Source: Lytechinus pictus
Taxonomy: Eukaryota
Length of the DNA stretch: 64,000 bases
Assembly (NCBI RefSeq): GCF_037042905.1
Contig: NC_087251.1
Span: 34,660,001-34,724,000, forward strand
Direction of reading: 5' to 3'
In this document: in pieces, positions 9,801 to 15,800 of the stretch
How the letters are laid out: each line of letters starts with the position of its first letter
How positions within the stretch are numbered: position 1 is the first letter of the stretch
Notes under the pieces: model-generated
Databases searched by the model: none
What the model was told of the DNA's origin: nothing
The model's input: only the letters and a program-made list of their open reading frames with translations
Program-made: the position numbers and the translations under genes

Positions 9801-12800
9801 TCTTTACCCCGTCTACAAAATCTTTATCAGCGCATAAACTGCTGTTAAACTTCCAGTACGATCTCCCATATGCAAAGCTTTCGACTAAATTATCAAACTC
9901 TACCTGAACTCCAGCATGGTCAGGAGTGATAGAGGGTAAAATGTCTGAACTTTTCACGTCTTTTTCTAAATTCGAGGAGATAAAAATATAATCTAATCTG
10001 CTCTGAACAAAAGGATTATTTTGTTTGAAGGTAAATTCTTTTTTGTTAGGGTGCCGCTTCCGCCACACATCAATTAGATTTAGCCTATCAAGAAAATCCA
10101 CCAATGAATCTTTATATCTATTTTTCGAAATATTACTTCCACCCATGTAATCTAAGTTTCGATTCATAGCAATATTAAAATCTCCTCCAACAATAAGAGA
10201 ATATTCTTGACTAACAACAGAAGATAAAATTTTGTCCAAATCAGACAGAAAATTGCATTGTAAGTTTTCTTTATTCCCTGTGGGGAAATATACACTACCC
10301 AATATAATCTTTTCACCTTGACACTTCCCTTTAATTATAACGTATCGTCCTTCTTTATCAATGATAATTTTTTCTTTGAGAAAATCAACCTTTGATTTAA
10401 ACATAATGATAACTCCCCTACTGTGGTTACTCCCATGACTGAAAAACATTTCCCCCTTCCAATCAGCCTTCCATCTACCTTCAGTGTCTTTTGTGCTAAA
10501 AGTTTCCTGCAGAAATATTATATCCCCCATCATCTGACACCACTGAAATATTTTATTCCTTTTGATTTGATCTCTCAGCCCTCTGACATTGACCGAAAGT
10601 AGTTTTAAATTACCCGACATCAATTAACACAAAAAGTCTAAACCTCTGACAAAAACTTTGGAATAAGAATATGAATGATAATGATATTACTGCAAATTGG
10701 TAGCTTGATTTTTTTAACATGACAAAATAACCTGTTAAACTAAAATGGGGATAAGATAAATACAGATAGACACCAGAACTGGAAAACACAACACACAACA
10801 TATCATTCCACTTCACCCCAACAAACACAGCACATACACTTCTGCAAACATACTCAAACACATGCCCATAGACTGTCCCTACCATGAAACCCAAAGAAGA
10901 AAGACTTTTCTTCATATCCTAAAAAAAAAAAAAAATGCAAATTACGAATAGGCCTATTTTGAGGCCTCTCCCATCACTTCTGTGATTTTAAAACTACAAT
11001 TAAAGAAGATTCAAAATTATTTTCACAAAATTTATCACTCCCTCCTAAAAAAAACCTAGATTACCTCACTCATCCCAGTATTTATATTAAATATAACAGT
11101 TTTTTTTCCTATCTTAAAAATTGGTTTTAACATTTCATTGATAGATATACAAACTTGAATATTTTTCAGTTAATTAAAGAAAAAAAATAATAATATTTGT
11201 GACTCTTATTCCTCTTCATATAATATCTAAAAAACTCAAAATCTTTATGCAATATCTTAATGTTTTCTTTAAAAAAAAAAAAAAAAAACTTTACTATCCT
11301 TTCTTTTTTCTTTTCTTTTGAACAGAAATAAAAATAAAATTATTATTCCCATTCATGCGAAAAAAAGATTAAAAGGAAGAGAGAAAAAAAGGGGGAAAAT
11401 GCATCCTTTGCAAGATTTTGCCTACATTTTATCTGCTTTCGAACCTCTTAAAGATGGCTGAAGACCTGCTAGGGACGAAACCTCTTTCAAAGTACAATTC
11501 GTTCCCTTGCCGTATCCACCCCTTATTGATAAACTACAATTGGGCCCCATCCTACAAAGAACCGCGACAGACCTGACTAACCACAATATGGAAGGCCAGC
11601 AACGCCAAATTCTACAGATGCACGCTTGTTCCAAAATGTCCCTATAGTTATATGTATATTCACGCAGTCATCATTGTCTTGACAAACAAGCACGCCCCTC
11701 CCTATTTATAAAAAGACACTGTAAAAAATTTTCCGCAGATCAATCGCAACTCCCTGCAAGATGGGGCCCAGCTGGATGACCACATACACAGGAAGGTGGT
11801 GACGAGGTCTCAAAGATATACGTTCGCCTTCCAGCCTCCCGGGCCAATCAGAGCCGAGAGGACGTGACACGCCATGAATTTAAGATATTCATACCAGTAT
11901 TCAGTTTATAATTGCAAAAAAACCACGCCCTGTCAGCTCCGATGGTTCCGAGAAACCAGAGACAACTCGGGTTACTAAACAAAACTCTCGGCACCAACCT
12001 TCGCGGAACAGTCACGTCATAAACAACCTCACCTAAACCAGGACTCTACCACATTGTACTTGTTCGACAAAACTGATATATTTCTACTATTATTTCGCTA
12101 ACTAGCAACTTCCCTTCTTGCATCCTAACAAATGGCATTATAAATATGCCAGCCTTTCTGAAAGTTTTTTTATTCAATAGCACCTAGAGTACAAAAACCA
12201 GCTATTGTGTGAGAAAAAAAAAAAAAAAAAAAACCATTCTTCCGAAATTTGTAAACTCAAGCACAATATCTTTGTGGATTTCTTCCTCTTCAAAAAAATA
12301 GTTCCTTAAGTCTCAAAATCTTTATGCAATCTACTTATATATTCAAACTTACTGTATTATCAATTCATTTATATATACATAAAAAAACAAGGAAATTTCC
12401 TGATCCCTCTTTCACGTGAAAAGAGGGAAGGAGCATAAGTTAATACACGATATAAATATCATTTCTGTCTGTTGGCGAACCTCGCCCTGCTCATGTGGAT
12501 GGCCGAAGACCAGCTAGTGACGAGCCCTATTAAATATACATATTATTTATTATAAAAAAAAAAAAAAAAGAAAGATCGTTCCATATATAGCCGTCAGCCC
12601 ATTCACCAAACCCCGTGCTGACTAGCCTATAATCCAGGCGGAGGCCGCAGCAACCGTCCCCGCCGCTACGCCGAACGCAAGCGACGCGACCGACCCAGCT
12701 AAGGCCACGCACTGTGCCTGCGTAGCCAGCCACAATGCGTAACCCCGCCAGATCAGACGCATCGCCCGCGACCAGCACAGCAACAAAGACACAAACGCAG

Positions 12801-15800
12801 CCCCCGCCCAGATCACAGACGACCAGCTAAATCCATCCGCTGACCAACAAGAAGCTGGTGACAGGTCTCAAAAAGATATACTCTCGCCTTCCGGCCTCCC
12901 GGGCCAATCAGAGCCAGGCAGACGCACCGCGTCATTGATTGATGAAATAACCGGGTATACATTATCCAAATCATTCAGTTGACTAAAGTGCGAATGATGC
13001 CCAGTCAGCCCCGATTGTCCCGAGAAACCAGAGACGAGGTCAATAAACATGAACTCTCGCCACCAGCCTCCGCGGACCAATCATAACTGAGAAAAAAAAT
13101 GCACGTCATAATTACCTCGCCTAAACCAGGGTACTACAACATTTCAAGTATTCGACAGAATTGAATAATAGCTGTTTTCCTTTTGAATTGAATAATAGCT
13201 GTTTTATCTTAACCATTGGCATTTTTTTTTATTCTATGCCATTCTTCCATAATGTCTAAAATCAAGCATACCTTTATAATTATGGCTTTATTCCTCGTCA
13301 TGTACATGTAAATCCTAAGATCTCAAAATCTTTATGCAATCTATCGGTACCTACATTAAAGATACTTAACTGTCAATTTATAAAAAGGAGTAAATTTCCT
13401 TATATCCCTTTTGGGAAGAACATCAGTTACAAAAGTTAATTATAATTTTTGCCGTTTGCGAACCTCATCATGCTCATAAAGATAACTAGAGACCAGCTAG
13501 TGACGAGCCCGGTGTAAAAAGTACAGCTCGTTCCCTAGCCGTCGGACCAAACATCCACCCCAACCAGCTATATCTGACTCTCGCCTTCCAGCCTTCCCGG
13601 GCCAATCAGAGAGAGAAAGCGTACCGCGTCATTGATGAGAAAAGAAATTGATAATTACCCATTCATTATCCAAATCATTCAGTTGACCACTCAAATACCA
13701 CGCCCAGTCAGCTCCGATTGTCCCGAGAAACCCAGAGACGAGGTCAATTAAAAATCATGAACTCTCGCCACTAGCCTCCGCGGACCAATGTAAGTTGATG
13801 AAAAACAGTCACGTCATAGCTAGTGGGTAGCACATTACCTCGCCTGAACCAGGGTTCTACATTTTACGAATTCGACTTAATTGTTTCATTCTCCTATTTT
13901 TTAATTACTCAACACCTCACACGTTCCAGCGTCTACATCAAATGTATTTGGCAAAGCCATTTTCTTTTCTTATCTTAACGAACTGTATAGCATGATTCAG
14001 TTACGTAATACAATCAGGGTAACCATTCTGAACATTACAGTGATTTATGCCTGCATTGTTATCTATCTTTACTAATTCATTGAAATGCATTCTTTCTCTT
14101 AAACATTCCATATACAAATAAGCTTTTAAGCATCATTACCTTCAATCAATCATGAAAAGAAATGGTCCTTTTACCCTTACAAAAGCTTTGAATTCCCAAA
14201 CATCTCAATCTTCCTTCGTATTGTAGAAACCAAAAAGAACATAATGAAATATTCCCCAATATCATGAAGCTATTATAATTTCCACTACAATTTGAACAGC
14301 AGTTTTATGAAGAATCAACTTTTCCCCAAACCAGCTTAAATATGCACCCCATTGGGATGTATTCCATTGAGCTTTTTTTTACAAAATGACCACACACACA
14401 AAAAAAAAATATCTTCAGAACTGATCATAACTGACTCCAGAAAAAAGATTCACAGCAACAAGTATCTCTTATAAACTTAAATCATGGAGCTATAGCTCTA
14501 TGCTTAAATCTAGCTTATTTTTGTTTCCCTTATGAATAAAAAAAGGAGAAAAGCATAAGCCTCATGTTGTTACTATGAAATCTTGTTTCCATTCATCAAG
14601 TCAAGGTGTGTTATGACTCGGTACTCTAATCAATTTCTTGCAATATCATAATCAATTTTTCGTATTTCTTGCATCTTTGAAGATATTGATCTTTTCCAGT
14701 TGTAAAGTTTTTCTTTTATCAAAATAAATAGCAAATAGAAAAGAAAGGAAATATACCTCATCTACTCCTGTTCATTCAGTTATGTTATGATTTATCATTC
14801 CTCATTCAGCAGTTGCTTGCCAAGTCTCGTTCTTGTGATGAGTTGACAGTAAAATCTGCAGTTCTCGAGTGTTCAGTTACACTCCCTTTTTTGAGCTTGA
14901 TTGTAGAGTTGGTACCTCGCAGGCTCGTAAATGGTAAAAGATACATATCCTCCACTCGGTAAACATTAATCAGTTGAGAGAGAAAATCATTCACCTCCAT
15001 AATAATAAAGCACACTGAATCGTTATTTCACTTGCATAATCGACGAAATGAACAACCCGACCCGACCAGAGGGAACGAGTTTCACAAAATAAATACATGT
15101 CACCTCCATGATCGCTGGTAACTTGTGACAAATTTCAGATACTTTCTCCAAAGCAAATTTCCTTCAATCTATGCATTAGAAAAAAAAAACAAGATGACAG
15201 ATGAAATCACAATACCATCAAATTATGATCTGCAGCTACATTTGCACCTTCCATCATCTCCCCATCAGTGGCAGCCGCTGCAGCCCCCTCGTTGAAATCT
15301 GTTGTCGGCTTTGCTATCCCTGTGGTCATGTTGGTGGTCGATGCAGCTCCCGCCATCGTTGTCGGAATCCTCATGTTAGGCAAATTCTTCCTCACTCTTT
15401 CGTCTACATCTTTCCCTCGTTGGTTTTCGAAGTCTCGCACAAAAGCTTCCTGTTGATTTCGAGGCATATGTACGTTGTCGATAAATAGCTTGACTGGATC
15501 TGTTCTTGAAAAGTATGCCAATTTCCCCATTCTTCTGGCGACTTTCAACGCCACAATTTGGGGGTGTCTAGCCTCCCTAATCCTCTTCGGTAGATCTTCT
15601 GCAATATATATGTTGGTCCCTTTCAAATTTTTGGCATGCCTTTGTACCAAAACTCTGTCGGAGTATCTTAGGAAGCGAGCCTTAATGGCTCTTGGCCTCC
15701 CTCCGGCTGGCTTTCCTGAAAGTCGATGTAACCGTTGATATTCGAAGTTGTCTGCCAGTGCAGGTGGGATTTTAAGAAAATTCACGTGGAGGTCCCGAAG

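Follow-up and report, generated by a model that had tools for sequence, protein, structure and literature searches.

Genomic 'fossils' of RNA editing were reportedly described in mammalian retrotransposons by Knisbacher and Levanon in 2015 (Ann N Y Acad Sci), and in these edited retroelement RNA was reverse-transcribed so that clusters of A>G changes became heritable. In transcripts themselves, inverted-repeat transposons such as inverted Alu pairs form duplexes that are hyper-edited by ADAR, with clustered A-to-G changes on the transcribed strand in both arms (PMC4365171 and excerpts of PMC9989829). The ADAR 'biased hypermutation' of RNA viruses, as in the measles defective-interfering RNAs treated in a part of PMC5192505, likewise consists of duplex A-to-G changes that are inherited by the replicon and destabilize the duplex, and APOBEC leaves a strand-biased deaminase scar in retroelements, a G-to-A hypermutation fixed by retrotransposition (PMC4866542). 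The locus described here, a 64,000-nt stretch of Lytechinus pictus DNA (NC_087251.1, positions 34,660,001 to 34,724,000 of the forward strand; hereafter the window, with positions counted from its first letter), contains a young long interspersed nuclear element (LINE) in whose non-coding spacer, between the open reading frames ORF1 and ORF2, two miniature inverted-repeat transposable elements (MITEs) are nested. We consider it probable that this spacer combines inverted repeats of a triplicated unit, without selected pairing, with two nested MITE hairpins in which hyperediting of LINE RNA by an ADAR-type enzyme was fixed through retrotransposition. In contrast to hyper-edited repeat transcripts, the changes are genomic DNA changes common to all copies of the retrotransposon and not RNA-DNA differences, and unlike viral hypermutation they are germline-fixed in a cellular retrotransposon. 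The difference from the mammalian fossils is that the substrates are DNA-transposon MITEs inside a LINE spacer, for which many unedited genomic copies serve as reference, and that 34-62% of A sites are changed.

The spacer carries three tandem units of ~0.7-1 kb with a mean column identity of 65%, as found by repeat search and alignment (Table 1). Each unit consists of a GC-richer head and an AT-rich tail, and the head holds the short inverted repeats H1, H3 and H2, the last a partial duplicate of H1 that shares its 5' arm. The strongest sense-strand segment in a folding scan of the whole element (75-nt segments, 397 per strand) was 12765-12691 (z -5.7), between H2 and H3 of unit 2. It belongs to MITE-B, whose stretch 12827-12617 (A17 C51 G86 T57) forms a 93-bp stem of 48 GC, 14 AU and 31 GU pairs; for 12840-12600 the sense strand folded at -156.3 kcal/mol (z -13.0) and the antisense strand at -64.4 (z -3.4). 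The corresponding values for MITE-A (fold of 11780-11535) were -88.1 (z -4.44) and -52.9 (z -1.90). The two hairpins occupy paralogous sites, between H2 and H3 of units 1 and 2, and the alignment showed that unit 3 has neither insertion.

Both long hairpins are MITEs, being short and non-coding, with terminal inverted repeats and many dispersed copies. First-look searches returned 236 candidates for the abundant MITE-A family and 108 for the MITE-B family, the latter in both orientations, and terminal inverted repeats and palindromy were seen in alignments of 17 MITE-A and 18 MITE-B copies (69-75% identity in the comparison for MITE-B). Genomic members of both families have a balanced base composition. 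Those of MITE-B fold alike on both strands as ~90-bp hairpins (e.g., -196.5 and -196.8 kcal/mol), whereas the LINE-borne copy (A24 C54 G101 T67) folds at -161.1 and -65.4; the MITE-A family majority is likewise symmetrical (-108.4 and -109.2). Some genomic MITE-B copies, among them L070 and L076, show on visual inspection flanking repeats of 8-9 nt, candidate target-site duplications, which are not clear at the LINE-borne copies. Assignment of the unit-2 hairpin to the MITE-A family was tried and rejected, as it scored at shuffle level (16 vs 15.9 in plain comparison, 42 vs 40 with A and G collapsed) and belongs to a different family. Since the two families are unrelated, they provide two independent cases. 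Long MITE foldbacks within a longer transcript also recall MITE-derived pre-miRNA and endo-siRNA hairpins; here Rfam returned no match at gathering score in the 64 kb and none at E<=1 in 10600-15300.

Substitutions were scored against the family majority, which stands in for the progenitor, and the control copies were treated by leave-one-out. In the LINE-borne MITE-B, A>G changes were found at 31 of 50 sites, as against T>C at 3/51, C>T at 4/49 and 10 other changes, and in MITE-A A>G stood at 24/71, T>C at 2/61 and C>T at 6/38. The summed controls were nearly symmetrical, with A>G at 23/903 and T>C at 23/924 for MITE-B (18 copies) and 62/1435 and 49/1312 for MITE-A (17 copies), which corresponds to rates of about 2.5-4% each way. 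The excess of A>G over T>C was significant by the binomial test (p 7.7e-7 for MITE-B and 1e-5 for MITE-A) and, relative to the controls, by Fisher's test (p 1e-30 and 4e-14). The changes affect both arms and amount to 62% of A sites in MITE-B and 34% in MITE-A, and the 31 A>G changes of MITE-B equal the number of G-U pairs in its stem. Unlike the APOBEC pattern, G>A was found at only 0/51 sites in MITE-B and 7/44 in MITE-A. None of the 35 genomic control copies had more than 8/86 A>G sites. These copies had been chosen as the best matches to the edited query, a bias that works against the result. The strand-specific A>G excess is present in every LINE copy examined; the copies have most of the changes in common, each with A>G at 27-32 of 50 sites in MITE-B and 20-24 of 71 in MITE-A, and a few sites are A/G polymorphic.

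A one-base, strand-specific change at 34-62% of sites, in both arms of a duplex and within an element that replicates through RNA, points to ADAR hyperediting followed by reverse transcription, and both the enzyme and the fixation through retrotransposition are inferred. Each MITE would have been transcribed within the LINE RNA and folded as a long, near-perfect duplex, an ADAR-type adenosine deaminase would have turned many A to inosine in both arms, the LINE's own reverse transcriptase would have read inosine as G, and an edited copy would have become the master of the present family. A-U pairs would thereby have become G-U pairs, still paired in the sense RNA and A-C mismatches on the opposite strand. 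The footprint of ADAR was found in several respects: both families fold as long hairpins on either strand, A>G exceeds T>C on one strand with symmetric controls, and the RNA-to-DNA route is provided by a LINE with an open ORF2 encoding a reverse transcriptase and with copies 96-99% identical. Matches to A_deamin (PF02137) over the cut-off occur at four genome loci, which speak for the presence of the family only, as the domain also occurs in ADAT1 and ADAD. A 3' G was found at 18/55 edited and 8/54 kept sites (p 0.04); A sites kept as such number 15 in MITE-B and 39 in MITE-A. PMC9989829 assigns 86% of the A-to-I sites of sea urchin to repeats and reports that editing across metazoans avoids a 5' G, with a mild preference for a 3' G. 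The secondary signatures, namely neighbouring bases and pairing, run in the right direction but are weak. Polson and Bass are said to have found in 1994 an editing ceiling of roughly 50-60% for long perfect duplexes; the 62% of A sites changed in MITE-B is in line with it and was counted as support for ADAR.

The first-pass annotation had drawn attention to other structures of the spacer, a family of about eight short hairpins proposed to be specific to the sense strand and to carry compensatory changes. All eight stretches were confirmed at their stated minus-strand coordinates, H1 of unit 2 begins with the 5' arm that had been quoted (GATTGGTCCGCGGAGGCTGGTGGCGAG), and the fold of this hairpin (27 pairs; 14 GC, 7 AU and 6 GU) comes close to the ~26 positions and about seven G-U pairs counted before. 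The triplicated unit carries three short, imperfect inverted repeats, of which the eight hairpins are paralogous copies; they are related because of the three tandem units with their H1/H2 sub-repeat. The ~1-kb units were not detected by Tandem Repeats Finder. Differences between units were not asymmetric (A/G vs C/T 41 vs 52, 33 vs 34 and 52 vs 69). A 303-nt DNA search of the assembly matched LINE copies only, and an IUPAC pattern of the H1/H2 arm with <=3 mismatches met 8 places, all in LINE copies, in a weak search whose pattern fitted only the form of H2 in unit 3. The tail of unit 2 also holds a perfect palindrome, CCCTCTTTTCACGTGAAAGAGGG, with CACGTG at its centre (~12400-12425), and the 75-nt segments over it scored z -4.05 for the sense strand and between -2.8 and -3.4 for the antisense strand.

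When the MFE (minimum free energy) of each hairpin was compared with 300 dinucleotide shuffles on each strand (Table 1), the claimed sense-strand specificity held for H1 of units 2 and 3 and failed for the other six. H3 of units 3 and 1 are ordinary inverted repeats of equal stability on both strands, and H1 and H2 of unit 1 and H2 and H3 of unit 2 showed no sense-strand gain over shuffles. In the 75-nt scan both H1 segments had z -3.49, at about the first percentile (-3.50), and ORF1-coding segments went down to -3.1 to -3.2. The sense MFE lies below the antisense MFE throughout the element (array -14.7 vs -9.5, ORF2 -9.5 vs -6.6) while the mean z is alike on both strands (array -0.25 vs -0.21); what looks like a general 'sense specificity' thus comes from base composition. 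The earlier idea of a double-stranded RNA (dsRNA) or ADAR decoy came nearer the mark, in that the sense transcript formed dsRNA and ADAR was probably involved, but the evidence lies in two MITE-derived hairpins that had not been listed, and it consists of a mutational scar, neither a decoy nor a selected structure.

Several observations weigh against this account of the spacer. Between older and younger LINE subfamilies there is no A>G excess (spacer A>G 6 vs G>A 13, MITE hairpins 1 vs 1), so the burst predates the sampled copies; no date relative to the flanks could be set. The LINE flanks lack an outgroup, so that the A>G changes may not be confined to the hairpins, and a family majority stands in for the true progenitor MITE copies. 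The depletion of 5' G at edited sites is a mere trend (9/55 vs 16/54 kept, p 0.12), and the A sites of MITE-A were edited at 18/40 paired and 6/23 unpaired positions (p 0.18). The differences between H1 and its paralogue H2 are chiefly T/C differences of the 3' arm, and A>G editing of the sense strand does not account for these. The six G-U pairs of H1, which cannot be polarized for want of an outgroup, may have arisen by A>G editing like those of the MITE hairpins. H1 of unit 2 is also unusually conserved between subfamilies (5 substitutions per 300 aligned sites vs roughly 5-8% overall). This figure is based on three older copies and places it among the best-conserved 100 nt of the spacer; the stretch 14840-14741 is as conserved (4/300). 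Some constraint on the unit heads is possible, and it could act on DNA motifs (putatively CCAAT- or CRE-like) as well as on RNA. Finally, in three RNA runs (~6% of each run) depth was zero over 11992-13339, so that these runs show no transcription of the array and no editing at the present day.

The RNA-read peaks at 11738-11769 and 16292-16331 consist of reads that match only partly and come from other repeat copies, those at 16292-16331 diverging on both sides of the match. Diagnostic variants in reads over ORF2 fit none of the compared copies, and the depth is thus not assignable to a locus. One contig run, like the three RNA runs, had zero depth over 11992-13339, and none of the four gave joints. 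One contig of run X1 (689 nt, depth 138) spans 11361-11934 and continues into the upstream flank of L036, a 5'-truncated LINE copy, so the L036 locus seems to be read through from outside.

Could the units instead be promoter or enhancer 'monomers', with the conserved blocks as transcription-factor sites and the small hairpins incidental to a palindromic arrangement of sites? We hold this to be unlikely. The motifs TATGACGTG and CTCTGATTGGCCCGGG, which lie outside the stems, are invariant in the alignment of the three units; we take them as putative CRE/ATF half-sites and reverse CCAAT boxes, and such CRE/CCAAT-like motifs occur twice per unit, but the CCAAT-like site is mutated in H1 of unit 1 and in the more distant relative L035. 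H2 of unit 3 has kept its conserved 5' arm, without a partner, after losing the 3' arm, which would fit the proposal. The 5' UTR (untranslated region) of the LINE is only ~80 nt long, and in runs X7 and X8 RNA depth is 0 in 10981-11317 and sets in within the bin directly upstream of ORF2 (10644-10980); yet no reads or read starts fell within the array in the three RNA runs. Truncated copies, whose starts would pile up at an internal transcription start, begin at 11934, 11098, ~11480 and scattered ORF2 positions without any pile-up. Mouse L1 5'-UTR monomers are likewise tandem non-coding units with conserved short motifs within a LINE, but the present units measure ~0.7-1 kb and not ~200 bp, their place is the inter-ORF spacer instead of the 5' UTR, and their promoter role is putative. 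A sister spacer, moreover, shares only a 111-nt block with this one.

Somewhat less likely still is the proposal of a function for H1, and perhaps for H2 and H3, as RNA stem-loops of the LINE that are selected for pairing and might serve ORF2 translation over the length of the spacer, packaging or small-RNA production. The gain of two H1 hairpins over shuffles on just the sense strand (z -4.35 and -3.40) would fit it, as would the conservation of H1 in unit 2 across the three older copies and the recurrence of multi-kb ORF1-ORF2 spacers in sister families. Besides, the five differences between H1 and the unit-1 H2 in a 9-nt core of the 3' arm all retain pairing with the unchanged 5' arm, but a G/U-rich 5' arm tolerates most opposite transitions, which makes kept pairing a weak test. 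Compensatory changes, which had been claimed for the family, were not found in H1 and H2: RNAalifold of the 6 H1/H2 paralogues gave double changes in 0/22 pairs and a covariation term of +0.48, and 23 distinct H1/H2 sequences from all copies had a covariation score of 0.188 vs 0.193 in shuffles (371/500 shuffles as high), with 77.8% of cells paired vs 78.0%. The covariation reported for H3 (ACGAG versus ACGAA) is real and is a single event. The comparison took in 12 sequences and 15 pairs; one of these pairs reads G-C in 5 sequences and A-U in the three from unit 1, and it is broken in 4/4 unit-2 sequences.

Stem substitutions among copies kept and broke pairing in ratios of 5/17, 4/13, 2/4 and 4/3, with 6.3, 5.2, 2.1 and 4.7 expected to be kept; the last two ratios, 2/6 and 4/7 kept, belong to H1 of units 2 and 3, and the counts, which are mostly private changes in dead copies, have little bearing on the master lineage. 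Stems are thus broken as often as by chance, ORF1-coding segments match the z of H1, four hairpins stay at shuffle level on the sense strand, H2 of unit 3 has no 3' arm, H3 is equally stable on both strands, and neither a covariance-model match in Rfam nor RNA depth over the array speaks for a structured family. Covariation, shuffled controls and equality of strands, the checks that the first-pass annotation had itself proposed, have been carried out, and the claim of a selected RNA family fails on them.

A DNA-level or sampling cause of the A>G bias, be it a MITE subfamily that already carried G, transcription-coupled asymmetry or biased repair of extruded hairpins, is very improbable, for although a family majority stands in for the progenitor copies and the flanks could not be polarized (the subfamily comparison covers the recent period only), the same bias is found on the same strand in two unrelated families, a palindromic DNA-transposon subfamily would stay Watson-Crick symmetric where 31 G-U pairs are seen here, none of the 35 controls exceeded 8/86 despite a choice biased against the result, and transcription-coupled asymmetry falls far short of converting 34-62% of one base.

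The host LINE extends from a 5' end at ~16271-16289 to a 3' end at ~6205-6209, as judged from the limits of homology between genomic copies. Pfam matches in ORF2 were RVT_1 (1.5e-35), Exo_endo_phos (2.3e-13) and zf-RVT (6.6e-10). ORF1 matched no Pfam family and has 15 database relatives, of which one, named from sea urchin, shows 40% identity. The largest frame wholly inside the spacer encodes 98 aa, and a 102-aa frame at 10610-10918 overlaps ORF2 by 14 nt. In the 811-Mb assembly, five LINE copies at 96-99% identity run from ~16271-16289 to the end of the stretches compared, together with three older copies, the partial relative L035 and L036. Both ORFs are open in the window copy and in L029, and L036 (G000:C18), which begins at the window equivalent of 11934, has an open ORF2 of 1249 aa.

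Sister LINE families share 77-79% nt identity at the 5' end of ORF2 and 41-45% aa identity in ORF1. Their inter-ORF gaps, computed from coordinates only, are ~3.4 kb (C7:43871924-43876731, C2:60733733-60738542 and C7:16537381-16542333), ~4.0 kb (C2:40615012-40620378), ~4.5 kb (C17:23817098-23823009) and ~9.1 kb (C5:37300431-37310854). A multi-kb inter-ORF spacer thus looks like a feature of the clade, unusual among L1-like elements. Directly upstream of ORF2, a GT-rich 111-nt block (10770-10880, minus strand) is 91% identical to the sister locus L067, where the adjoining ORF2 start is 79% identical; the block may serve ORF2 as a leader, promoter or translation element. In the L067 spacer a direct repeat of ~130 nt, with copies 260 nt apart, was also seen by eye (L067:1-390, positions 1-130 and 261-390); this spacer otherwise has no similarity to the present array, and the 111-nt block is all that the two spacers share. 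Upstream of the LINE 5' end, 16290-16409 is another abundant repeat with many 66-79% matches genome-wide, and it supplies the initial ~50 residues of the open ORF1 frame. Just past the 3' end, open frames overlap on both strands at 4594-5699, at a strong switch of GC skew (+0.50 in 4001-6000).

Table 1. Features of the LINE and its spacer, in window positions (z, MFE against shuffles).
Feature	Position	Strand	Remarks
Young ~10-kb LINE	6205..16280	-	Homology limits among genomic copies, 96-99% identity
ORF1	15207..16199	-	Frame open from 16409, first Met near 16199
ORF2	6874..10623	-	Endonuclease, reverse transcriptase and zinc-knuckle domains
Non-coding ORF1-ORF2 spacer, 4.6 kb	10624..15206	-	Present in all full-length copies
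Unit 3	13200..13870	-	Alignment; no MITE (empty site); H2 without 3' arm
Unit 2	12190..13150	-	Repeat search and alignment; carries MITE-B
Unit 1	11130..12060	-	Repeat search and alignment; carries MITE-A
MITE-B long hairpin, ~200-bp palindromic foldback family	12617..12827	-	Hypermutated A>G on LINE sense strand
MITE-A long hairpin, full copy, ~270-bp family, ~35-bp terminal inverted repeats	~11541..11772	-	Hypermutated A>G on LINE sense strand
H1 of unit 3	13716..13789	-	MFE -29.4, z -3.40 sense; -11.8, z -0.40 antisense
H1 of unit 2	13013..13082	-	MFE -31.3, z -4.35 sense; -14.2, z -1.16 antisense
H1 of unit 1, decayed	11941..12013	-	z -1.13 sense, -2.12 antisense
H2 of unit 2	12838..12910	-	z -0.29 sense, -0.59 antisense
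H2 of unit 1	11777..11850	-	z -0.06 sense, -1.38 antisense
H3 of unit 3, plain inverted repeat	13491..13543	.	z -3.69 sense, -3.73 antisense
H3 of unit 2, AT-rich loop insertion	12495..12606	.	z -1.03 sense, -2.08 antisense
H3 of unit 1	11465..11512	.	z -2.55 sense, -2.43 antisense

On the best reading, the real feature of the region is the nested pair of MITE hairpins with an inherited RNA-editing scar, which is of a kind already known. Full-text searches of the literature found no description of this element or of editing scars in LINE-nested MITEs, which is not proof of absence. A more far-reaching proposal, which we regard as doubtful, treats the LINE as a heritable recorder of germline ADAR activity, in which two MITE hairpins were deaminated at 62% and 34% of A and written to DNA. 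The edited master may then have prospered because editing dismantled perfect duplexes that would have fed RNA interference or dsRNA sensing, ADAR would be a pro-retrotransposon factor, and the multi-kb spacer with its conserved units, an architecture also found in sister families, would be a functional module of ORF2 expression and not junk.

Fixed A>G scars are rare direct evidence of retrotransposon RNA duplexes and of editing in germline cells, and they indicate that RNA editing can cause heritable mutations in animals other than mammals. With the nested MITEs a control is built in, since dozens of DNA-only copies are symmetric and the RNA-passaged copy is not. They also call for caution, because sense-only, G-U-rich hairpins of retroelements can be mutational scars and are not necessarily selected structures. 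A genome-wide comparison of retroelement-nested with free inverted repeats could gauge past ADAR activity in any animal without RNA data.

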